Below are positions 1,390-46,358 of a stretch of 52,318 nucleotides of DNA, one piece after another (positions within the stretch are counted from its first letter, which is position 1; each line of letters starts with the position of its first letter). A program made the position numbers and the translations under genes. This DNA comes from a virus. Lineage: Duplodnaviria; Caudoviricetes. The stretch lies in the IMG/VR virus record IMGVR_UViG_3300032331_000666, positions 1-52,318 of that record; one strand, given 5' to 3'. The notes under the pieces are model-generated. The model was not told where the DNA came from. It saw only the letters and a program-made list of their open reading frames with translations, and searched no databases.

Positions 1390-2298
1390 ATGGCTATTTC
1401 ACGTGCACAGCTCCTTAAAGAGCTATTACCAGGACTTAATGCGCTATTCGGTTTAGAATATGCAACTTACGGTCAAGAACACAAAGAAATCTACGAAACA
1501 GAGACTTCTGAGCGTTCATTTGAAGAAGAAACAAAACTTTCAGGCTTTTCAGCAGCACCAGTTAAAAACGAAGGCACAGCCATCGCTTATGACAATGCTC
1601 AAGAAGCTTGGACAGCACGATACAATCACGAAACTATCTCCCTTGGCTTCAGCTTAACTGAAGAAGCTATTGAAGATAACTTATATGATTCATTATCTGC
1701 TCGTTACACAAAGGCTTTAGCAAGAGCTATGGCTTACACAAAACAAGTGAAGGCTGCTGCAGTTATTAATAACGGCTTCAGTTCTTCATACACAGGTGGT
1801 GATGGTGTTGCGTTATTCAGCACTGCTCATCCACTTGTTTCAGGTGGCGTTAATAGTAACACTCCAGCTACAGCAGCTGACTTGAACGAAACTTCATTGG
1901 AAAATGCAGTTATTCAAATCGCAGCTTGGACTGATGAGCGTGGTCTATTAATTGCAGCTAAACCTAAAAAACTTATCGTTCCACCAGCATTGCAATTCGT
2001 TGCAACTCGCTTATTGGAAACTGAGTTACGTGTTGGTACTGCTGACAATGATATCAATGCTATTAAGAACAATGGCTCTATCCCAGAAGGTTATACAATT
2101 AACCACTTCTTGACAGACGCTAATGGTTGGTACTTAACAACTGACGTTCCTAATGGTATGAAACACTTTGTTCGTACTCCATTAAGTAATTCAATGGACG
2201 GTGACTTTGACACAGGTAACGTACGTTATAAATCACGTGAACGTTATTCATTCGGTTGGTCAGATCCGTTAGGTATGTTCGGTTCACCAGGTGCTTAA
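1390..2298 (+). CDS. Major capsid protein (Mu gpT-like)
   Basis: MAISRAQLLKELLPGLNALFGLEY start, SERSFEEE, EEAIEDNLY, YKSRERYSFGWSD end; AGGAG RBS; followed by a terminator. Confidence 0.9.
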   Translation: MAISRAQLLKELLPGLNALFGLEYATYGQEHKEIYETETSERSFEEETKLSGFSAAPVKNEGTAIAYDNAQEAWTARYNHETISLGFSLTEEAIEDNLYDSLSARYTKALARAMAYTKQVKAAAVINNGFSSSYTGGDGVALFSTAHPLVSGGVNSNTPATAADLNETSLENAVIQIAAWTDERGLLIAAKPKKLIVPPALQFVATRLLETELRVGTADNDINAIKNNGSIPEGYTINHFLTDANGWYLTTDVPNGMKHFVRTPLSNSMDGDFDTGNVRYKSRERYSFGWSDPLGMFGSPGA

Positions 2299-30789: not shown

Positions 30790-33700
30790 ATGCCAATAGA
30801 TGTCAGGATGCCTGATGGGACTCTTGTAAAGAACGTCCCAGATAACATAACGCAAGCTGATTTGCTTGCCAGATATAATGCCTTCTCGGCACAACCTGCC
30901 ACGTCTATAGCTCCTGAAATACAAGTAAAACCACAAGCTCCTCAAGTTGGTCCTGAAGGCGCTCCTATACCTCCTATACTACAAACACAAACCCAAGTTT
31001 CAGAAGATAGACCACTTGCTGGATCTGCTAGAAAAGGCATAGTTAATTTACAGCAAACTGGTGAAAACTTACGCCTTGCTAATCTTATGGAGTTACAAGA
31101 CGCATACAAACAACAGTATGGTCAAGGCTATGAAAATGCTCCCCCAGAAAAGATTGTAGATCTACAAAAACTAGAAGATGATATTAATACTTCTAAACGT
31201 GTATCTACATCTTATGATTTAAAACGTCAAACACTTAGCAAGCAATATGGTATTACGCCATTATCTCAAAAGCTAGATGAAGTTCAATCTACTCCAGAAT
31301 ATCAAAATGCAAGTGGCATTCAAAAGTTTCAATCTATTGGTGAGACATTACTTAAAAACCCAGGAGACATACCATCTTACATTGGTAACATTGGATTAGA
31401 AAGTTTACCTAATTCAATGGCCATGATGGCTTCTGCTGTTGTTGCTAGGTATATGACTGGCAGTCCATCTTCTGCAGCTGTAGCAGGTGGAACTACATCT
31501 TCATTTACAGAGTTTGGCAATCAATATGTAAGTAACAGAGAACAAGGAAAATCCCACCAAGACGCTATGGCGGAAGCATCTGTTAAATCTGGAATCATTG
31601 GTTACTTTGATGCCGTATCATTTGGATCTGCTGGTAAAGCACTAGAAGAAATCATTAAAGAATTTAGTAAGGGTGCCATTAAATCTACTGCAAAAGAAGT
31701 AGGTAAAGAAACTGTTAAACAAGCAGCTTATGGTGCTGCTGGAGAAGCTGTAGGATCAGTTGCTACAGGACAGCCTATTGATCCACGTGCTGTAGTAGAA
31801 GAAGCCCTAGGTGAAATTGCTGGCGCACCTATGGAAGCTGTTACAACATACAGATCTAATAAAGCAATTGCAGATCAAAATGTACGACCAACACCGCCTC
31901 CAGTATCAGAAAGAGTAGAGCCAGAAGTAACTCCTATTCGACCTGCTACTACAGAACCTGCCACAGTAGAAACTTCCGCCCCTACAAAAGTAGATACATC
32001 ACATGATACTCAAGCTATGCTTGATGAGTTATCTGGCAAGGATGTTGAATATGTGCCAGAAGAAGAAATAAAACCTATTGGACCTCCAAGGCTTACAGAA
32101 GAGGAAAAGGCTCAGCTTGCACCATTAGATAAGCTGAATGCTAAAGACCGTAAGATACATAATATGCCAACGCCAGAACTTCAAGCAATGGCTGATCAAG
32201 GAATGATTCAATGGTCAGATGAATTTATTGATTCTTTAAACAAACCAAAACAAGAAGTTATTCAAACTACCCCCATGGGTAACAATACCGAATACCATGT
32301 TTTACAAAACGATCAAGGCCATGTTGCAAATCTTTACGATAAAGACGCTGGTCAATACGTTCCTGGAAGTTTGAGAATATTCCCTACTGAGACATTTGGA
32401 GAGCAAACAGAAACAGCAGCTAAGAATTTTGTTCAAGAGGAACAGGACAAAGCTGCACAATATGAACCATCAATTAAAGAAGAGCCTACAGGTATTATTT
32501 CTGAAGAAGAAAGACAATTTACTCCAGTAGGTGGCAGGCTTATCAATAAGAAAGATGCTGATAAATTAGCTCGTGAGTCAGCTATTGCATTAGAACAAAA
32601 TTTAAAGAATCAAGAAATTCAAAGAGACAAACAGATTAGACGTGAGATTCGTGAAGATAGGTTCCCAGCTGCTGAAACACCATCGCTAGCTTCAGCTCTT
32701 AAAGCTTTAGGTGGTATCAACCAATCCAATAAATTAGATATGCTAGGAGATACTGGCAAACTGTTTAATTATGAAAGTGCTTTTTCAAAAGATGGTGAGG
32801 ACTTACTTACCTATATTGAAAAGGGAGACCTTGATCAATACCTTCCACATCAAATACGTTTAAGTAATACACCTGAAGGCGAAGCATTTGATCCTAGACC
32901 TGGATATGAATATATATCTAAAGTTATTGAGTCAAAACAAAAAGCATATGATTACGAATATGAATTAGCTAAGATTGATCATGAAAATCAGATCAAAGAA
33001 AAATATCTAGCTAAACAATACATGGAACCTAACGAAGAAGCAAGAGTTGCTAGAATTGAAGATTTAAATTTAGGTCCGATGTATGAAAAAATAAAAGCCA
33101 AGCCAGGTGCTAACGTAGGAAGAATAGCAAAAATGCTAGGCCCTCAACTATATGGCAGCATGGAAAACATATCTGAAGTTTCTGTAAAAGAAATGGTTCA
33201 AAATTCGTTTGATGCAATTAAAACGATGATTGAAAAAGGTGTTATGGATAAGGGCAATATTAGCATTAATATGAATGTAAGCGACAGATCTATTACAATC
33301 AAAGATAATGGTAGTGGAATGAGTCCAGATGTTCTTCAAAATACATTTTTTACCATTGCTGGAACAAATAAAGAAACTGAGTTTGGCTCTGGAGGGTTTG
33401 GTATTGCTAAAATGTTATTTTTATTTGGCAATCAAAACGTAGAAGTCACTACCATGCGTGACGGACAAATTAGCCATTTTGTTGCGTCTGGAGAACAATT
33501 AAAAGCGTCTTTAGATGATCCATCTCAAGCTCCAGATATTAACACTTATGCTGCTGACCAATACAACAAAACAGAACTAAGAGAAGATTTTCCGCAAGGA
33601 CATGGCACTATAGTAACAGTTGTTGTTCCAGAAACATTTACCAATCCATCAACTGGGAAAACTGAAGATATTCCTTTTGTTGCAGATAAATTTGAATTTC

Positions 33701-36700
33701 CAGTATTAAGATATAGCCCATTATTTTCAAATATTGAAATGAGATTTAATGAGGAAAATTTAATGCTTGGATCTTCATTTCCCAAAGAAGATTACACTAC
33801 ATTTGTTAATGCGGATTTTGATTGGGGTACTGCAAGAATATACGTAAGTACATCTGAAAGAGATAGATGGGGTAAAAATTTACATGTACTATCCAATGGT
33901 TTATGGCAATTTAGTGAAGAATTAACAAAAAAACCAGGTGATAAATATGCAGATAATATTCCATATAGATTTTATGTAGACATTGTTTCTAGAGCAAAAC
34001 CAGATGAACAAGGATATCCATTTACATTTAATCGCCAAAGTCTTACAAAAGAAGCAACTGCTGATCTTGATCTTATAAAAAATTACTTGTGGCTTAACTA
34101 CACAAAAAAAGATATATCTAGCACAAGTACTAGCTTTGGAAATGTACATTACCTAAGCAAAAAAAATGGCAAAATTAATGTTTCAGCAAAAGAAGATTTA
34201 AATCCAGAAGTTAATGTTCAAGAAATTTCAGATGGCATTCAAGAAGGATCTAATGTAAAAGTTATTGATGGTAAGTTAATTGTAAACGGAAAAGAAATAC
34301 CAGCATTAAATCTACAAGATCTAAAAAATGCAACTATTGACTTAGATGAGTTAAAAATACCTCAAGACAATGTCAAATCAAATGACATCATGGTTCATGA
34401 TAATTTAGGAGTAGAAATTGAAGGAAACTTCAGGCCTATTACTGAATTAGCTAAAGAAAAGTTTGGCGAACGTTTTGATCAATTTATGTATGAAATTGGA
34501 GACGTATTTAAAACATTAAGAGACCGTGTCGTTTATCTTAATATTAAAGGTGAATTACCAAATTATGATGATGTTGGCTATAAAGATTTAGCTAACCATG
34601 CTATTGGTATATCATTTGACAAAGAATATAGAGGTGTTAGTATTAAACTACCATTTAATGGTATGTTTATTAACCCAGCATTACCAGAATTTACAGATCC
34701 AGAAGGTGCTGGTTTTGGTTTATTTGGTACAATGATACATGAGTTGGCTCATTATCAAGTACGAGATCATGAAGAAAAGTTTCCTGCAGAAATGCAAAGA
34801 CTTAGTATTGTTTTAAAGAAAGACAAAGAATTTGACTTGAATGGTTTAGAACAAGAGCTTGTAAAGTCAGTTATTAAAAATAAAGATATATTAGACTATT
34901 TAAATGACCTTGGAGTAAATTATGAATCAGAAGCTATTGGACAGCGTTTCAAAGACAGCGAATACGAAAGAGCAACTAGACGCACTTCTCAGAACATATC
35001 TGAGTCTGGGAGAGCGAGACAACCTGGACGGGAAGTATCTAGCAACATTAAATCAAGGGATCAAATTGCTAGACAAATGCAGCAATATCAATCAGTTCCG
35101 TCAGCGAATCAAACAACACAAAGGCGTGTAGCAGGACAACCACCACCTAGAAACTTTAGAGGCCAAGAAGTATTGCCTCAATGGCACGGTCCTGAAGAAT
35201 CTAAAATAGATGATTGGATTTACAATCTTCAAAACAAACAGATTGATACTAAGCGTGTTCAAGAAGCTATTGGTGACATAGAAGAGAACTGGAACGTATA
35301 CGAAAAAGAACAGCTATACCATGGTAGAACTGCATCAGGTATTCGTAACTTCTTACTCAAAGAACTTCTACCAGTTATCAAAGAAATTGAACGCTTAAAA
35401 ATTAGCCCTGAAGACATTCGTACTTACTTGCATAATCGTCATGCAGAAGAGCGTAACATTCGCATGAATGAAAAAAATCCAGATATCTACGATCCTAAAA
35501 CAGGAAGAACAACTCCTAATCCACTTAAAGACAAAGCATCTGGTATTCATACTAACGATGCACGAGCTTATTTAGCAGGTTTAGATCCAGCTAGAAAACA
35601 AATCTTAGAACAGATTGCAACTAAGTTTGATGAAATGGTTAAAGGCACACAAGATGTATTAATAGCTTCTGGTGCAGAAACTAAAGAGACTATAGACAAA
35701 TGGAATAAAATTTACAAACATTACGTCCCATTATTTAGAGTTGAAGATGATATGGCCAGACCATCAGGCCTGAGTGGTGTTGGTCAAGGCTTTGGTTCTC
35801 GTGGTGACTTTAGTAAACGTGCTATGGGTTCAGAGAAAGATGTTCAAGATATTTTAAGTAACATTATTGCTCAGCGTGAACGTGCTTTAATCCGTGCTGA
35901 AAAAATTAGAGTAGGCCGTGCTTTATATGGCATGGCTATACAGAATCCTAATCCAGACTTCTGGTTACCTATTAACCCTGATGCCATTAGAAATAAGAAA
36001 CAAGCTATTGCTGAATTAAGACGCATGGGTATTCCTGACGCTGAAGATGTAGTAAACAATCTAATGGCTGAGCCTAAAGAGCGTTATCTTAAAAAGATAA
36101 ACGCTGCTGAAGGAGCTGTTGAGCCCGATGAAAATTTTGACTTTGATTCAGGTCTTCCAGTTAATGAAAGTAAAGAGGTTGTGGCATCTAAGATTAATGT
36201 CATGGCTCGATATAAAGACTTTGTATTCCCAGTTAGAATTAATGGTAAAGACAGGTATATATTCTTTAATAAGAATGATCCAAGATCATTACGCATGGTT
36301 CAATCATTAAAGAACTTAGATGTAGAGAATCTAGGATTAGCATTAAGTATTGCTGGTAAGTTTACCCGCTGGTTTAAAAACGTTAATACACAATACAATC
36401 CAGTATTTGGACTAGTCAACTTCGTCCGTGACTTTAGTGGCGCATTACTTAACTTAACTAGCACAGAGATTAAGGGCGAACAGGCTAAAGTTATTGCAGG
36501 CGCTTATAAAGCTATGGGTGGTATCCTAAACGTACACCGTGCTGAGCGTAAAGGCAAACCATTACCTACTGGACCATGGGCTAAGCTATACCAAGAAGCC
36601 CGTGCTGAAGGATTCCAAACAGGCTATCGTGATTCATTGATTCGTAATCAAGAAGAAATGCAAATTATTGAACATACGCTTGAACAGTTTAAAGATAGTA

Positions 36701-37944
36701 ATACTAAGAAAGCTTTTTACTCTGTGATTGGAGGACTTACAGACTTCAATGACATGATGGAAAATGCTATTCGCTTATCTGCTTATAAGGTAGCTCTTGA
36801 CAAAGGTCTATCAAAACAAAAAGCAGCGATCATTGCTAAGAATTTAACAGTTAACTTTGATAAGAAGGGTGCTAAAACTGCTCAAGTCAATGCGCTTTAT
36901 GCATTCTTCAACGCATCTATTCAAGGTACTGAACGTATCTATCAAACAATTAAGGGCCCTAAAGGCAAGATGATTATTGGTGGTGGTATCTTAGCTGGTA
37001 TGGTTCAAGCTGTAATGCTGGCAGCTGCTGGATATGACGATGATGATCCTCCAGAGTTTGTTCGTGAAAAGAACTTTATTATTCCATTGATTGATGGTAC
37101 ATACTTAACCGTACCTTATCCATTAGGTTATAACGTGCTACCTAACGCAGGCCGTATTGTTATGGACTTTATGTTACATGGTGGACGTGATCCAGGTAAG
37201 CATTCAGTATCTTTATTAGCATCCACTTTAAATTCATTTAACCCATTAGGTAACACAAGCCTTTCATTCCAAACACTTGCCCCTACAATTGCAGATCCAT
37301 TGGTTGCATTAGGTGAAAATAAAGATGCGTTTGGTAGACCTATCTCTCGTAAGGATCGTGCTACAGCACCAACGCCTGGCTATACAAGATCAAGAGAAAC
37401 AGCATCTAAAATTAGCCAAGGATTAGCTTACTTCCTTAACTTAGCATCAAATGGATCTAAGTATCAAAAAGGTTATATTAGTCCAACGGCTGATGAGCTT
37501 GACTTTATTGCAGGCCAGGTCGGTGGTGGTTTGTATCGTGAAGTCACTAAAGCTGGTAAAGCTATTAGCGCAATAGTCACTGGTGAAGAGATTCCAACAT
37601 ACCAAAGACCAGTGGTGGGTCGTTTTGCAGGCAAGACAGGATCACAAGCATCCGTATCACAATCATTCTATGATAATGTGACTCGCATGACTGACCACGA
37701 GAATGAGATAAAAGGTCGTATGAAGAATAGAGAAGACGTAGAAGGATATTTAACAGATCATCCAGAGGCTAGATTATGGAAGAGAGCTAACTCTGTTGAG
37801 AATAAAATTAATGAATTGAATAAAAGAAAGCGTTTATTTGCAGAACGTGGCTTCCCTAAAGAGCGTATCCAAGCTGTTGATGCTCAAAAAACTATGCTCA
37901 TGCAAAGATTTAATACTCAGGTTAAGAACTTACGTCCTGATTAA
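30790..37944 (+). CDS. Giant polyvalent/ejection protein: GHKL ATPase + HExxH metallopeptidase + LPD38-like C-terminus
   Basis: KEMVQNSFDA, IKDNGSGM, SGGFGIAK (GHKL boxes); MIHELAH...H; HYVPLFR, NPVF..VNF.RD, LYAFFNASIQG, ENKDAFGRPI. Confidence 0.8.
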   Translation: MPIDVRMPDGTLVKNVPDNITQADLLARYNAFSAQPATSIAPEIQVKPQAPQVGPEGAPIPPILQTQTQVSEDRPLAGSARKGIVNLQQTGENLRLANLMELQDAYKQQYGQGYENAPPEKIVDLQKLEDDINTSKRVSTSYDLKRQTLSKQYGITPLSQKLDEVQSTPEYQNASGIQKFQSIGETLLKNPGDIPSYIGNIGLESLPNSMAMMASAVVARYMTGSPSSAAVAGGTTSSFTEFGNQYVSNREQGKSHQDAMAEASVKSGIIGYFDAVSFGSAGKALEEIIKEFSKGAIKSTAKEVGKETVKQAAYGAAGEAVGSVATGQPIDPRAVVEEALGEIAGAPMEAVTTYRSNKAIADQNVRPTPPPVSERVEPEVTPIRPATTEPATVETSAPTKVDTSHDTQAMLDELSGKDVEYVPEEEIKPIGPPRLTEEEKAQLAPLDKLNAKDRKIHNMPTPELQAMADQGMIQWSDEFIDSLNKPKQEVIQTTPMGNNTEYHVLQNDQGHVANLYDKDAGQYVPGSLRIFPTETFGEQTETAAKNFVQEEQDKAAQYEPSIKEEPTGIISEEERQFTPVGGRLINKKDADKLARESAIALEQNLKNQEIQRDKQIRREIREDRFPAAETPSLASALKALGGINQSNKLDMLGDTGKLFNYESAFSKDGEDLLTYIEKGDLDQYLPHQIRLSNTPEGEAFDPRPGYEYISKVIESKQKAYDYEYELAKIDHENQIKEKYLAKQYMEPNEEARVARIEDLNLGPMYEKIKAKPGANVGRIAKMLGPQLYGSMENISEVSVKEMVQNSFDAIKTMIEKGVMDKGNISINMNVSDRSITIKDNGSGMSPDVLQNTFFTIAGTNKETEFGSGGFGIAKMLFLFGNQNVEVTTMRDGQISHFVASGEQLKASLDDPSQAPDINTYAADQYNKTELREDFPQGHGTIVTVVVPETFTNPSTGKTEDIPFVADKFEFPVLRYSPLFSNIEMRFNEENLMLGSSFPKEDYTTFVNADFDWGTARIYVSTSERDRWGKNLHVLSNGLWQFSEELTKKPGDKYADNIPYRFYVDIVSRAKPDEQGYPFTFNRQSLTKEATADLDLIKNYLWLNYTKKDISSTSTSFGNVHYLSKKNGKINVSAKEDLNPEVNVQEISDGIQEGSNVKVIDGKLIVNGKEIPALNLQDLKNATIDLDELKIPQDNVKSNDIMVHDNLGVEIEGNFRPITELAKEKFGERFDQFMYEIGDVFKTLRDRVVYLNIKGELPNYDDVGYKDLANHAIGISFDKEYRGVSIKLPFNGMFINPALPEFTDPEGAGFGLFGTMIHELAHYQVRDHEEKFPAEMQRLSIVLKKDKEFDLNGLEQELVKSVIKNKDILDYLNDLGVNYESEAIGQRFKDSEYERATRRTSQNISESGRARQPGREVSSNIKSRDQIARQMQQYQSVPSANQTTQRRVAGQPPPRNFRGQEVLPQWHGPEESKIDDWIYNLQNKQIDTKRVQEAIGDIEENWNVYEKEQLYHGRTASGIRNFLLKELLPVIKEIERLKISPEDIRTYLHNRHAEERNIRMNEKNPDIYDPKTGRTTPNPLKDKASGIHTNDARAYLAGLDPARKQILEQIATKFDEMVKGTQDVLIASGAETKETIDKWNKIYKHYVPLFRVEDDMARPSGLSGVGQGFGSRGDFSKRAMGSEKDVQDILSNIIAQRERALIRAEKIRVGRALYGMAIQNPNPDFWLPINPDAIRNKKQAIAELRRMGIPDAEDVVNNLMAEPKERYLKKINAAEGAVEPDENFDFDSGLPVNESKEVVASKINVMARYKDFVFPVRINGKDRYIFFNKNDPRSLRMVQSLKNLDVENLGLALSIAGKFTRWFKNVNTQYNPVFGLVNFVRDFSGALLNLTSTEIKGEQAKVIAGAYKAMGGILNVHRAERKGKPLPTGPWAKLYQEARAEGFQTGYRDSLIRNQEEMQIIEHTLEQFKDSNTKKAFYSVIGGLTDFNDMMENAIRLSAYKVALDKGLSKQKAAIIAKNLTVNFDKKGAKTAQVNALYAFFNASIQGTERIYQTIKGPKGKMIIGGGILAGMVQAVMLAAAGYDDDDPPEFVREKNFIIPLIDGTYLTVPYPLGYNVLPNAGRIVMDFMLHGGRDPGKHSVSLLASTLNSFNPLGNTSLSFQTLAPTIADPLVALGENKDAFGRPISRKDRATAPTPGYTRSRETASKISQGLAYFLNLASNGSKYQKGYISPTADELDFIAGQVGGGLYREVTKAGKAISAIVTGEEIPTYQRPVVGRFAGKTGSQASVSQSFYDNVTRMTDHENEIKGRMKNREDVEGYLTDHPEARLWKRANSVENKINELNKRKRLFAERGFPKERIQAVDAQKTMLMQRFNTQVKNLRPD

Positions 37945-44194: not shown

Positions 44195-44386
44195 ATGGCA
44201 AGTGAAGCAGGAAAAGGTAGTAAGCAAAGACCTACAAATAGAGAAGCATTTGAAGAGTCATATGATCGTATATGGAAAAAGAAAAAACAGTTAAGAGAAG
44301 GTATGCATTATGAAACTGATACCGATAATCTTCATGATATTAAGTATGATGTAAAGTATATGCCCGAAGATCACTATGAAGAGTGA
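44195..44386 (+). CDS. Hypothetical protein
   Basis: GKGSKQRP...F..SYDRIW motif. Confidence 0.65.
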   Translation: MASEAGKGSKQRPTNREAFEESYDRIWKKKKQLREGMHYETDTDNLHDIKYDVKYMPEDHYEE

Positions 44387-44534
44387 GGTTCAGTCGCCTT
44401 GTATTAAAATTTGTAAGCTAGAAAATAATCACTGTGTTGGATGCGGTAGATCTAAGCATGACATTACTTATTGGAGTGAATACAGTAATGAAAAGAAGTT
44501 TAAGATAGTAAGACAACTTAAGAAGAAAAAATGA
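44376..44534 (+). CDS. DUF1289-family Cys-rich (putative Fe-S/Zn) protein
   Basis: SPCIKIC...CVGCGR...I..W; 52 aa, not in ORF track. Confidence 0.8.
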   Translation: MKSEVQSPCIKICKLENNHCVGCGRSKHDITYWSEYSNEKKFKIVRQLKKKK

Positions 44535-44638
44535 ACAAACTTCAAGCAATCGTAGAAGCTATTATAATCTTAACTATCATGTGGTTTTTTTATGGCTTTA
44601 TTAAAGTATGTCTTATGGCCTACGACTTCTTTATCTAA
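44531..44638 (+). CDS. 35-aa membrane peptide
   Basis: MNKLQAIVEAIIILTIMWFFYGFIKVCLMAYDFFI; ATGA overlap. Confidence 0.5.
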   Translation: MNKLQAIVEAIIILTIMWFFYGFIKVCLMAYDFFI

Positions 44639-45253
44639 CTACCAAAACATAGTCAATACGTCATCAATACGTATTAAATGCCCCTGCAATGTAATCCTGT
44701 AATCACCTTCAACATATTCTTTTAGTCCAGCAATTCTATGTAATACAGTTCCATCATGGCCTATGATCTCTTTCTCTGCATAAGGCAGATACTTTTGCTC
44801 TCCATCTTCAATATAATCCAACCCTCCCCCACCTGTAGGTAGTTTAATTACCACTGTAAATGCATAGGGGTCAATACTGCCTAAATCTAGAGTAATATGC
44901 GGGTAGTCTTTATGCCAAAGTCCTGCATGGGTGAGCAGGAATCGGCTTGAAACGAATATATGAAAGGATGGGTGAGATAGAGAATAGTTAAGCTTTATTG
45001 GCTCTTTAAACTGATCTGATAAGTAATCAATAATGATATCATATGTGTCGCCAAACTGTTCACGCAGTATGGGATTTAATACCTTGAGATCTTGTCTGTA
45101 TTCTGGAGTCTTACCATCTAGGTAAGCGTTTCTTCCAAGCGTATAGAAGAAAAATTCATTTGATCTGGATACCCAATACTTCTGAAGTCTAAAGACTTTA
45201 TCAGCTATCTCTTCAGTATTGATATCTAATTTGTGAGAAATAAAAGGGGGCAT
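44639..45253 (-). CDS. Fe(II)/2-oxoglutarate oxygenase-like protein
   Basis: HKD (HxD), FTVVIKLP.GGGGL, distal LHRI and RITLQGH (R-x-T) fit a DSBH dioxygenase; ATG at 45253 (alternative TTG at 45262). Confidence 0.7.
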   Translation of the reverse strand: MPPFISHKLDINTEEIADKVFRLQKYWVSRSNEFFFYTLGRNAYLDGKTPEYRQDLKVLNPILREQFGDTYDIIIDYLSDQFKEPIKLNYSLSHPSFHIFVSSRFLLTHAGLWHKDYPHITLDLGSIDPYAFTVVIKLPTGGGGLDYIEDGEQKYLPYAEKEIIGHDGTVLHRIAGLKEYVEGDYRITLQGHLIRIDDVLTMFW

Positions 45254-45260
45254 AGCCCCC
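45242..45260 (-). terminator. Terminator/attenuator hairpin after pqqA
   Basis: Minus strand GGGGGC-TAT-GCCCCC-TTTT, 9 nt after the pqqA stop. Confidence 0.75.
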
Positions 45261-45269
45261 AATTATACA

Positions 45270-45341
45270 TTACTTATTCATTACGTACATCGTCACTTCA
45301 AAGCCAAATCTCATTTCTGTTGCTGATGGAGTTGTCCACAT
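45270..45341 (-). CDS. pqqA: Pyrroloquinoline quinone precursor peptide PqqA (MWTTPSATEMRFGFEVTMYVMNK)
   Basis: Canonical MW..P....R.GFEVTMY with E-x3-Y core; AAAGGA RBS; 23 aa. Confidence 0.97.
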   Translation of the reverse strand: MWTTPSATEMRFGFEVTMYVMNK

Positions 45342-45524
45342 AATATTTTCCTTTGTATATAAAAAAGACCTATTTTTGCTACACAAACACCTTTGTATGT
45401 AATTTACTCCATACAAGCTAGTTTGTATTGAATATAATGCGCCTTTTGCTATACAAAGTCCTCCATAAAACCATGAATGACAGGTAAAAAAGTAACTCTA
45501 ACAATAAGTAGAGATAGAAATAAG

Positions 45525-45542
45525 TGTAAAGTATGCTTTACA
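45525..45542. promoter_or_regulatory. Palindromic operator-like site TGTAAAG-TATG-CTTTACA
   Basis: Perfect 7-bp inverted repeat in a divergent intergenic region. Confidence 0.5.
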
Positions 45543-45675
45543 TTGGTTTTCACTCAAATCATTGATTTATATACAAATGAATGAAAACAATATTTAATCA
45601 ACTGTAAAAATCAATATGCCTTCTATATAACATTTAGTTATATACATCTATTTCTATATAACTTATATAAATATG

Positions 45676-45704
45676 TTGACACGGATATAGGGATTTGATA
45701 TAGT
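45676..45704 (+). promoter_or_regulatory. Strong sigma70 promoter
   Basis: TTGACA-17 nt-TATAGT. Confidence 0.85.
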
Positions 45705-45709
45705 TTCGT

Positions 45710-45815
45710 TGTGAGTCCCTTTCCTCACATGTCTTTCCTTTACATCTCTCTCGTAAAGTCTCGGTGTCCCTCGCACCTTAAAACCCTTAGATTAAAACCT
45801 AGGGGTTTTTCTTTT
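45710..45815 (+). ncRNA. Small RNA with three C/U-loop hairpins plus intrinsic terminator
   Basis: TGTGAG-TCCCTTTC-CTCACA; CTTTAC-ATCTCTCTC-GTAAAG; GGTGT-CCCTC-GCACC; bounded by a promoter and a terminator; no RBS-led ORF. Confidence 0.8.
45780..45815 (+). terminator. Intrinsic terminator of the sRNA
   Basis: AAAACCCTTAG-ATTAAAAC-CTAGGGGTTTT, then TCTTTT. Confidence 0.8.
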
Positions 45816-45822
45816 ATACCCC

Positions 45823-45851
45823 TTGCATTTTGTTTTAAACAGGAGTAAATT
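45823..45851 (+). promoter_or_regulatory. Probable promoter for the replication operon
   Basis: TTGCAT-17 nt-TAAATT. Confidence 0.5.
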
Positions 45852-45919
45852 TATAAATGAGAGAAGTGAATGAAAGACTAGTGATGTATTTCTACGTCAT
45901 TATCTTCCTATTCCCTTTT

Positions 45920-46170
45920 GTCCGTACTCCAAACGTTATCACTGAACCTAAATGGGTTGCGTGGAATAATACATAGGCCTTGTTACACCCGCAAGCGAGC
46001 CTCGTGAACTTAAATGGGTATCACACAAGATATACTGCCACGGGGTGACTTGCCAACAGTATGTCGATTGAACATTAACTCTGTGTAGGACTGGTATTGG
46101 GTAGCTTCTATTGCTTAATGTGGGTCAAAGGTGTGTCCATCTCACCCTTGGCGGAGCCATATTCTAAAAA
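45920..46170 (+). other. Structured, relatively GC-rich element upstream of the replication genes
   Basis: TGAACYTAAATGGGT at 45943 and 46005; GATATACTG/CAGTATGTC stem; AGGC-CTTG/CAAG-GCCT stem. Confidence 0.45.
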
Positions 46171-46184
46171 AACGAAAGGATCAA

Positions 46185-46358
46185 ATGAGTTTTATAAAAA
46201 GAAAGGAAGACGGCTTCCTAACAAAGAAGCTTGTACAAGAACTAAAGTTGTATCATACTACTCCTGAGGAACTAGATCCTATTAGAAAGATCGCAATTGA
46301 TTACTTACTCTCGGATAGTTGGAAGAATTACAAAACATATAAGGGAACTCCACAATGA
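46185..46358 (+). CDS. Hypothetical protein
   Basis: AAAGGA RBS before MSFIKRK. Confidence 0.55.
   Translation: MSFIKRKEDGFLTKKLVQELKLYHTTPEELDPIRKIAIDYLLSDSWKNYKTYKGTPQ

Follow-up and report, generated by a model that had tools for sequence, protein, structure and literature searches.

In bacterial pqq operons, a hairpin lies between pqqA, the tiny gene encoding the precursor peptide of pyrroloquinoline quinone (PQQ), and pqqB, and an abundant short pqqA transcript is accompanied by a rarer one that reads through into pqqB. Phages also carry pqqA. The accessible text of Coutinho et al. 2020 (PMC7678222) describes the viral PqqA gene as auxiliary in methylotroph phages that have no pqqB-E, boosting PQQ for methanol dehydrogenase, and it also states, through its references 50-51, the established formation of PQQ from the Glu-x3-Tyr pair of PqqA. 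The window examined in this study, that is, the whole stretch of DNA that was analysed, is the complete IMG/VR record IMGVR_UViG_3300032331_000666 (Duplodnaviria; Caudoviricetes; 52,318 bp, estimated completeness 83%). On its - strand, a pqqA gene (45270-45341 including the stop codon; identified by profile matches and translation) encodes a 23-residue PQQ precursor peptide with the pair Glu16-x3-Tyr20, and is followed by a terminator-like hairpin and by the gene for a 204-residue WelO5-like Fe(II)/2-oxoglutarate (2OG) oxygenase of the hydroxylase type (44639-45253; recognised from its translation, ligands and fold model). A first-pass annotation of this DNA had read the pair as a dedicated module of precursor peptide and modifying enzyme. 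Comparison with related phage sequences suggests that, on balance, pqqA and the oxygenase gene are probably independent accessory genes that were brought side by side once in this lineage, and not such a module.

The window gene resembles the orphan viral pqqA genes (PMC7678222) in being a lone precursor gene with no pqqB-E, and its peptide fits the same family models, scoring well above the curated cut-offs of both PF08042 (41.3 bits against 21.1) and TIGR02107 (38.5 bits against 20). It differs in lying antisense within a replication module and in having a terminator that overlaps the start of the next gene; the accessible text of the earlier study mentions no oxygenase beside pqqA, although its supplements could list neighbours. 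A strand survey bore out the placement of pqqA on the - strand among + strand neighbours, as first annotated: between 38332 and 49970, all open reading frames (ORFs) of at least 90 amino acids (aa) lie on the + strand save the oxygenase and one ORF inside the primase gene. Searches of the window for pqqB (TIGR02108), pqqE and pqqC returned no match, the pqqC search being silent in every control genome too, so that this last blank is weak. Processing of PqqA to PQQ would fall to host enzymes.

The locus is also similar to the bacterial pqqA-pqqB junction, in that a tiny precursor gene is followed by a stem-loop and then by the gene for an iron-dependent oxygenase. However, PqqB has a metallo-beta-lactamase fold, the start codon of the following gene falls within the stem-loop in the window, and this gene is optional, being absent from the sister phage L094. 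An analogue of PqqB by homology was ruled out, as the fold is different and TIGR02108 gave no match. In Gluconobacter oxydans, PpqqA is described as the sole promoter of pqqABCDE (PMC8102297, accessible text). The orphan viral pqqA is already published (PMC7678222, accessible text), and what appears to be new in the literature searched is the phage family of WelO5-like hydroxylases, its pairing with pqqA and a start codon inside a terminator. A search for WelO5 together with bacteriophage found one unrelated paper only, the only relevant paper on viral PqqA in methylotrophs was the Lake Baikal study, and a search linking pqqA, phage and Methylophilales gave nothing beyond an unrelated genome paper.

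Distribution of pqqA and the oxygenase gene among phages

The best 80 of the 172 viral stretches encoding a relative of the oxygenase were surveyed for their gene neighbours. A pqqA gene was found upstream on the same strand in 10 of these loci (67-91% identity), while the other 70 loci (no more than 54% identity) had no PqqA ORF within approximately 4 kb. A gene for family A DNA polymerase was a frequent neighbour: in 39 of the 69 non-adjacent loci with enough upstream DNA, its end lay no more than 200 nucleotides (nt) before the oxygenase start. The pqqA-adjacent oxygenases grouped into a single clade of 11 rows (support 100/98) when 66 distinct sequences were placed in a maximum-likelihood tree, so that one change of label suffices.

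The reciprocal survey started from pqqA. Among 70 pqqA loci with at least 700 nt of downstream sequence, 34 had a co-directional ORF starting within 400 nt; these ORFs fell into 23 clusters, and the oxygenase was the downstream ORF in only one of the 70 loci. A profile search placed the oxygenase in 2 of 86 pqqA loci, 5.2 kb distant in the second case. Searching whole records for the oxygenase gave no match in any of 15 large pqqA records, a set that includes six of 97-100% completeness, while the positive control of this search succeeded in five of five cases. In addition, a tblastn search of 50,697 phage records identified the oxygenase only in the cyanophages P-HM1, P-HM2 and MED4-213 (29-30% identity), and in no Methylophilales phage isolate at E <= 1e-5. 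It is important to note that most viral records are fragments and that absences in records less than 90% complete are weak.

The sister phage L094, whose flanking genes share 84-92% amino-acid identity with those of the window, has pqqA at the same site together with the same upstream region. There, GGGGC-TTCG-GCCCC and a T run follow pqqA, and immediately beyond them lies the end of the convergent operon, a homolog of the last ORF of that operon in the window; the oxygenase is absent throughout the L094 record (39 kb, 63% complete). The corresponding hydrophobic 35-aa ORF of the window, the last gene of the convergent operon (44531-44638, +), has homologs in L004, L006, L010 and L094, and its stop codon abuts that of the oxygenase (44639-44641) with no gap, exactly as had been annotated.

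Further related phages carry both genes in other arrangements. In G001 and G004, which have a capsid protein 84-85% identical to that of the window (1390-2298), pqqA lies just after the capsid gene and the oxygenase is 24-25 kb off; the complete genome G026 contains one oxygenase copy. At locus L009 (capsid 86% identical), the order is capsid, pqqA, a terminator with a TTCG loop, an endonuclease VII gene and then the oxygenase, which begins MFTTH and has neither the hairpin nor TATAAT at its start. Another 12 related loci have pqqA at the capsid site and no oxygenase. The linkage in independent lineages by which a module of precursor and tailoring enzyme is recognised among ribosomally synthesized and post-translationally modified peptides was not found, L009 being the sole second context. 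These comparisons show pqqA and the oxygenase as two optional, single-copy accessory genes of varying relative position, the opposite of the pattern expected from a dedicated module. The endonuclease at L009 (986-1408) is an inserted recombination endonuclease VII (PF02945) whose stop codon overlaps the oxygenase start (TAATG); this enzyme, possibly mobile, could have carried the oxygenase to its second site.

The window PqqA matches nine isolate phages at 73-96% identity, namely P19250A, Venkman, MEP301, MEP401, MEP402 and four Melnitz records, and the named hosts of all nine of these strong matches are Methylophilales or Methylophilaceae; an uncultured spring-water podovirus also matches. 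The gene contexts in these phages differ in each of six cases. In Venkman, MEP301 and the spring phage, pqqA lies between opposite-strand genes; in P19250A a convergent gene faces it; in MEP402 an unrelated 174-aa protein comes next; and in Melnitz a tRNA follows. The gene is unannotated in P19250A (KX815270 28085-28153), Venkman (MT375522 9977-10045) and MEP301 (MW452941 3316-3384), as well as in MEP401 and MEP402 (OP830906, OP830907), and in the four Melnitz records and MW202481 an opposite-strand ORF or a 'hypothetical protein' is annotated at its position. The accessible text of the Melnitz paper (PMC9004378) does not mention a phage pqqA gene; it does record an annotated 2OG oxygenase in Melnitz.

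A scan of IMG/VR for the PqqA motif found at least 120 stretches, of which 80 loci were listed, and all 80 of the listed loci contained an intact PqqA ORF. A terminator-like hairpin was present within 120 nt downstream in 42 of the 78 pqqA loci with at least 100 nt of downstream sequence, compared to 11 of 241 control windows. pqqA is a known kind of self-contained phage cassette, far commoner in methylotroph phages than annotated and usable as a host marker. The variety of genes that follow it (23 clusters among 34 co-directional ORFs with a single oxygenase, and six differing isolate contexts), the 70 of 80 oxygenase loci without adjacent pqqA, and the syntenic L094 site with pqqA and no oxygenase all speak against the dedicated module of the first-pass annotation. 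What that annotation had named as telling against its own proposal is largely what these sequence comparisons appear to contain, and they lend the module little support.

Within the window, pqqA would be a host-derived helper cassette made up of a ribosome-binding site (AAAGGA, 45349-45354, -; 7 nt 5' of the ATG and the same in L094), 23 codons and an intrinsic terminator of its own. Transcription would start in the conserved non-coding stretch upstream (45342-45560, -), which is nearly identical in L094, and end at that terminator, and the extra PqqA precursor would be fed to the host PqqB-E enzymes, none of which the phage encodes. A consensus scan for the pqqA promoter gave no clear candidate, the best being a 9-of-12 site at 45530-45501, and promoter-like sites were not enriched across 44300-46200 (7 compared to 8.1 +/- 3.0 in shuffles). 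Metatranscriptome contigs resembling pqqA at 45269-45348 have high word depth in lake and river runs (up to 859 in X17); since their flanks are unlike the window, these contigs come from other pqqA genes, whether of hosts or of phages.

The junction between pqqA and the oxygenase gene

In - strand order, 16 nt past the pqqA stop codon, the junction reads TATAAT-T-GGGGGC-TAT-GCCCCC-TTTTATTT. The hairpin GGGGGC-TAT-GCCCCC (45246-45260, -), with six G-C pairs and a 3-nt loop in the terminator scan, has the features of an intrinsic terminator, namely a G+C-rich stem, a short loop and a T tract directly 3' (TTTTATTT, 45238-45245, -). This tract forms codons 3-5 of the oxygenase, and its TTTT is invariant in 10 loci. 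The oxygenase ATG (45253-45251, -) lies across the loop and the opening base of the 3' arm, while a TATAAT hexamer, a possible -10 element (45262-45267, -), lies 1 nt 5' of the hairpin. No usable Shine-Dalgarno sequence precedes the oxygenase, the G run ending 2 nt before the ATG. This ATG is the real start, because relatives such as L003 have an in-frame stop codon two codons upstream and homologs begin there too; an alternative TTG start at 45262 was ruled out, as relatives have an in-frame stop there.

Across 44300-46200, the scan identified 8 terminator-like sites, compared to 1.0 +/- 1.2 in shuffles. Folded alone, the 61-nt stretch around the hairpin gave a modest result (-14.8 kcal/mol, z -2.05, with 8 of 200 shuffles as good). 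In the comparison of 10 related loci (7 distinct sequences), all 42 of 42 cells of the stem were paired, and stem pair 5 varied among GC, AU, UA and GU in a compensatory manner, thereby making codon 2 of the oxygenase Pro, Thr or Ser. Such comparative pairing is stronger evidence for the hairpin than single-sequence folding, and the terminator-like hairpin is predicted to be the terminator of pqqA. The hairpin with its T tract and the start codon in its loop had both been described in the first-pass annotation and held up under comparison. The layout of pqqA, hairpin and ORF that it described is conserved within the clade with compensatory changes; the further step to a dedicated precursor/enzyme module is not supported.

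It is possible, and we put it forward tentatively, that the hairpin region serves mainly as an expression device for the oxygenase, with TATAAT acting as the -10 element, transcription starting in the 5' arm or loop to give a near-leaderless mRNA, and pqqA transcripts terminating at the same place. Two transcription units would then be packed into approximately 30 nt, an arrangement that is compatible with two independent accessory genes and refines the expression step of that explanation. The sequence ATAAT is invariant 1 nt before the stem in all 10 loci with a hairpin-embedded start (the full TATAAT in 9 of 10), despite a spacer from pqqA to the junction that ranges from 16 to 53 nt. It is missing before the hairpin in the related pqqA cassettes without a fused oxygenase start (L094, L113 and L009), all of which have GGGGC-TTCG-GCCCC and a T run at the same place. 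The lack of a Shine-Dalgarno sequence and the L009 oxygenase, which stands behind another gene and lacks both hairpin and TATAAT, point in the same direction. However, no convincing -35 or extended -10 element was found, the genome is A+T-rich with promoter-like sites no commoner than in shuffles, and the 10 loci belong to one clade, so that the invariance is partly inheritance.

Under the explanation by two independent accessory genes, the oxygenase would belong to an optional phage-borne family with one copy per genome, whose usual place is elsewhere, often immediately downstream of the DNA polymerase gene, and in this lineage it would have been placed directly behind the pqqA terminator. 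The loop would provide the ATG, and the 3' arm and T tract would encode residues 2-4, giving the N-terminus M-P/T/S-P-F. Expression of the oxygenase would presumably be low, by either of two routes. Transcripts escaping the terminator could be translated, although the stem would hinder initiation; alternatively, transcription starting 5-9 nt past TATAAT would produce a near-leaderless mRNA without the 5' arm and so with no hairpin. Among the roles considered in the first-pass annotation, that of an unrelated passenger fits best, although read-through from pqqA, its proposed means of expression, need not be the sole route given the invariant ATAAT and the possible near-leaderless start. Contigs of four metatranscriptome runs cover just 45262-45356 (pqqA) and 45886-46200 within 44300-46200; none lies on the oxygenase, and because contigs cannot show absence, ends or strand, they are silent on its expression. 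With a terminator, a possible -10 box and a start codon overlapping within 30 nt, the regulatory arrangement at this junction is compact.

The oxygenase family and its possible link to PqqA

WelO5 is a carrier-protein-independent Fe(II)/2OG halogenase of cyanobacterial indole alkaloid pathways, and the signature of such halogenases is the replacement of the carboxylate ligand by Gly or Ala. An AlphaFold2 model of the window oxygenase, built from a 43-sequence alignment, had a mean predicted local distance difference test (pLDDT) of 95.0 and a predicted template modelling score of 0.91. Its top Foldseek matches were WelO5 structures (E 5e-8, template modelling score up to 0.76), with other Fe(II)/2OG oxygenases ranking next; 406 Protein Data Bank (PDB) chains matched at E <= 0.001, and among the matches listed all were 2OG oxygenases. 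Independent alignment with VIA-align again put WelO5 first (5iqs_A, Z 19.3, root-mean-square deviation 2.5 A over 196 of 204 residues), ahead of SadA (Z 14.5), with prolyl hydroxylases and AlkB-like enzymes in the tail at Z 10-13 and all 50 listed matches at Z >= 10.1. The ligand residues H114 (44912-44914), D116 (44906-44908) and H172 (44738-44740) and the presumed 2OG-binding residues R186 (44696-44698) and T188 (44690-44692), all on the - strand and located by alignment, form an HxD...H...RxT pattern that is invariant in the 43 sequences. As judged from the modelled fold and the ligands, and not from a sequence profile, the protein is a double-stranded beta-helix Fe(II)/2OG oxygenase. The 204-residue length, the ligand pattern and this fold, which is unrelated to that of PqqB, all agree with the first-pass annotation.

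Sequence searches were far less informative. The protein matched no Pfam family at E <= 1 and no NCBIfam model, only 2 of the 43 family members matched a 2OG Pfam profile (PF03171, best E 0.14), and the only PHROGs match was phrog_24927, of unknown function. Searches of PDB sequences with the protein and with the profile returned only chance KaiB matches (E 0.17-0.9). The window protein gave no match to the WelO5 family PF22814 (cut-off 27 bits), while wider relatives scored 14.5-25.2 bits, below threshold, with P-HM1 gp170 at 16.2 bits; its protein-language-model neighbours include WelO5 (PF22814) clusters. A word-index search found 247 homologs, every one unnamed or 'hypothetical', as were the cluster members checked. 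Among 1.84 billion representatives, a profile search picked out 1189 proteins at E <= 0.001, 104 of them at E <= 1e-30. Phages of aquatic bacteria carry a large unnamed family of WelO5-like hydroxylases, with these 1189 cluster representatives.

WelO5 (PDB 5IQS and others) is the best structural match by a clear margin, but it shares only 10-12% identity with the window protein, which is approximately 80 residues shorter and keeps the Asp of HxD. In WelO5 the residue here is presumably Gly, which agrees with entry 5iqu being titled 'WelO5 G166D variant'. Because Asp116 is kept, a hydroxylase and not a halogenase is expected; the halogenase reading was rejected, as Asp116 is invariant and the Gly/Ala signature does not occur. 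SadA (PDB 3W20), an N-substituted L-amino acid dioxygenase and the second-best fold (172 residues aligned), hydroxylates free amino-acid derivatives, the kind of substrate deemed likeliest for the window oxygenase, but the two share 15% identity and sequence searches revealed no relationship.

Cyanophages carry several 2OG oxygenases of unknown role. The homologs in P-HM1 (PHM1_170), P-HM2 and MED4-213 align over 99% of the query and are annotated as hypothetical. They lie in a DNA metabolism region beside primase and nrdA and have a weak PF22814 match; proteins with domains of unknown function (DUFs) are encoded beside the cyanophage homolog. These proteins differ from the window oxygenase in their length of 257 aa, in a host that is not a methylotroph and in having no pqqA near them in the annotated stretch.

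More distant relatives show a recurring association with ATP-grasp ligases. Of ten scanned, six matched PF22814 below threshold, and two of those are fused to RimK-like ATP-grasp domains (P0239, 374 aa; P0257, 549 aa). An Enterovibrio coralii homolog (32% identity) overlaps by 4 nt with the end of the preceding ORF (L214 4087-4968 and 4965-5678), which has sub-threshold ATP-grasp matches; a Burkholderia homolog locus had no informative neighbour. The bacterial homologs L212 and L213 (45-48% identity) are on contigs of metagenome-assembled genomes and may be phage DNA. Given the fold neighbours WelO5 and SadA and the ATP-grasp links, a small-molecule or side-chain substrate is suggested; the enzyme would act on a free small molecule or on an amino-acid or peptide side chain, and not specifically on PqqA.

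Several observations weigh against the interpretation of pqqA and the oxygenase as independent neighbours. The branch leading to the pqqA-adjacent clade is long (0.35). The occurrence of the pair at a second genome site, in L009, means that the genes either travelled together or met twice. Among 20 records with a non-adjacent homolog, pqqA was present elsewhere in three of the five that are at least 64% complete (98, 86 and 68% complete, compared to 75 and 64% for the two without it) and in none of the 15 less complete records. Close homologs of the oxygenase may, from these records, be confined to pqqA-carrying phages, and dependence on PqqA predicts the same. The conservation of the junction with compensatory changes in the stem indicates selection on the arrangement, and the ATP-grasp links of distant relatives hint at amino-acid or peptide ligation chemistry. 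The co-occurrence can be explained by a shared host, since pqqA is common in phages of this host group, an explanation that leaves room for PqqA dependence.

It is unlikely, then, that the two genes form a functional module in which the WelO5-like hydroxylase acts on PqqA or on an intermediate derived from it, as an alternative to the PqqB step or toward a diverted product, with the terminator setting a high level of peptide and a low level of enzyme. Such a module could draw on the adjacency of pqqA in all 11 members of one clade (window included) at two genome positions, on the covarying junction, on pqqA elsewhere in three of the five fullest records above and on the ATP-grasp links. In addition, enzymes of the WelO5 type use free-standing substrates, according to the titles of PDB entries, which would suit a small cross-linked Glu-Tyr intermediate. 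Against it stand the sister phage L094 and all 15 large pqqA records without the oxygenase, the blank among Methylophilales phage isolates, the 70 of 80 homolog loci without adjacent pqqA, with adjacency tracing to one clade, and the presence of homologs in Prochlorococcus phages; co-occurrence at genome level is expected in any case if one host group has pqqA in common. The oxygenase chain is also a single domain (196 of 204 residues on WelO5), leaving no room for a PqqD-like peptide-recognition domain, and no such domain was matched in the protein or in the neighbouring ORFs scanned; the PqqD of the host could be an alternative recognition partner. The stronger claim, that the oxygenase is a tailoring enzyme of the PQQ pathway whether beside pqqA or 24 kb away, either a non-homologous replacement for the PqqB step or the source of a new PqqA-derived product with its start-in-terminator setting high peptide and low enzyme, is even more doubtful. 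It would suit the apparent restriction of close homologs to phages that carry pqqA. If the module were real, a phage enzyme would be rewiring how the cofactor needed to oxidise methanol is made in lakes and coastal seas, and there would be a hydroxylation route that does not need PqqB.

It is very improbable that the oxygenase ORF is a decaying or silent remnant stranded behind the terminator and facing the convergent operon: its start codon within a stable G+C hairpin and lack of a Shine-Dalgarno sequence, its end meeting that of the + strand operon with neither gap nor terminator between them, and its dispensability in L094 would all fit a remnant, but the reading frame is intact in all 11 clade members at 67-91% identity, the ligands for metal and 2OG do not vary among 43 sequences and the predicted fold is confident (pLDDT 95).

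Structured RNA candidate and remaining features of the window

Beside the two genes, in the ORF-poor gap at 45342-46130, lies a candidate structured RNA of approximately 260 nt (45873-46129, +), recognised by covariation across nine related loci. Of its 68 predicted pairs, 21 have compensatory changes in these loci. In total, 95.1% of 607 cells pair, compared to 38-49% after shifting the partners by 1-3 columns, and none of 500 shuffles reached the observed covariation. Many invariant G-U pairs favour the + strand, and the metatranscriptome contigs on 45886-46200, from four runs, lie over this element. It is also kept in L094, which has no oxygenase. Rfam and tRNA scans of the region were blank save a chance mir-7 match (E 1.3). 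From the comparative data, the element looks like an undescribed structured RNA, and it is perhaps worth more than the finding on pqqA and the oxygenase. Upstream of it on the + strand, the strongest sigma-70-like site in this region (TTGACA, 17 nt, TATAGT; 11 of 12 positions, with TG) occurs at 45676-45704, and an 11-bp hairpin with a T run at 45780-45809 lies just before the structured RNA; judging by position and sequence, these may be its promoter and an attenuator or leader.

The + strand of the window encodes tail-fibre-like, virion structural and DNA-ejection proteins, an exonuclease and an Erf-like annealing protein, along with an HNH endonuclease, a metallophosphoesterase, a helicase and a primase. 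For the metallophosphoesterase, a counterpart gene with 74% identity exists in the OM43 phage MEP301. Since the PqqA peptide matches isolates with Methylophilaceae hosts and the metallophosphoesterase that MEP301 gene, the host of the window phage is probably a methanol-oxidising member of the Methylophilaceae, as far as these sequence matches indicate. DNA runs labelled as freshwater or lake water contain 20-32% of the sampled words of the window, a hint only of habitat.

Other genes of the window, all on the + strand, include one for a small protein (44195-44386) with approximately 30 conserved N-terminal residues and no Pfam or PHROG family. Of the 70 non-adjacent oxygenase loci, 18 encode this protein directly 3' of the oxygenase (within 15 nt, same strand; L012, L014-L017, L022, L024, L027, L029, L032, L035, L037, L043, L050, L051, L056, L057 and L060), and in 7 more it lies farther downstream. 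The window homolog is approximately 250 nt from the oxygenase on the opposite strand, and this protein accompanies the oxygenase more widely than pqqA does. Two genes from the oxygenase, a small Cys-rich DUF1289 protein (PF06945, 58.6 bits) is encoded at 44376-44534 (+), and its homologs also occur upstream of the oxygenase in L022, L024, L037 and L078. A 2384-aa ORF at 30790-37944 (+), downstream of a DNA-ejection-like protein, has its only matches among PHROGs of unknown function (phrog_14770, E 9e-174); it probably encodes a giant internal virion protein.

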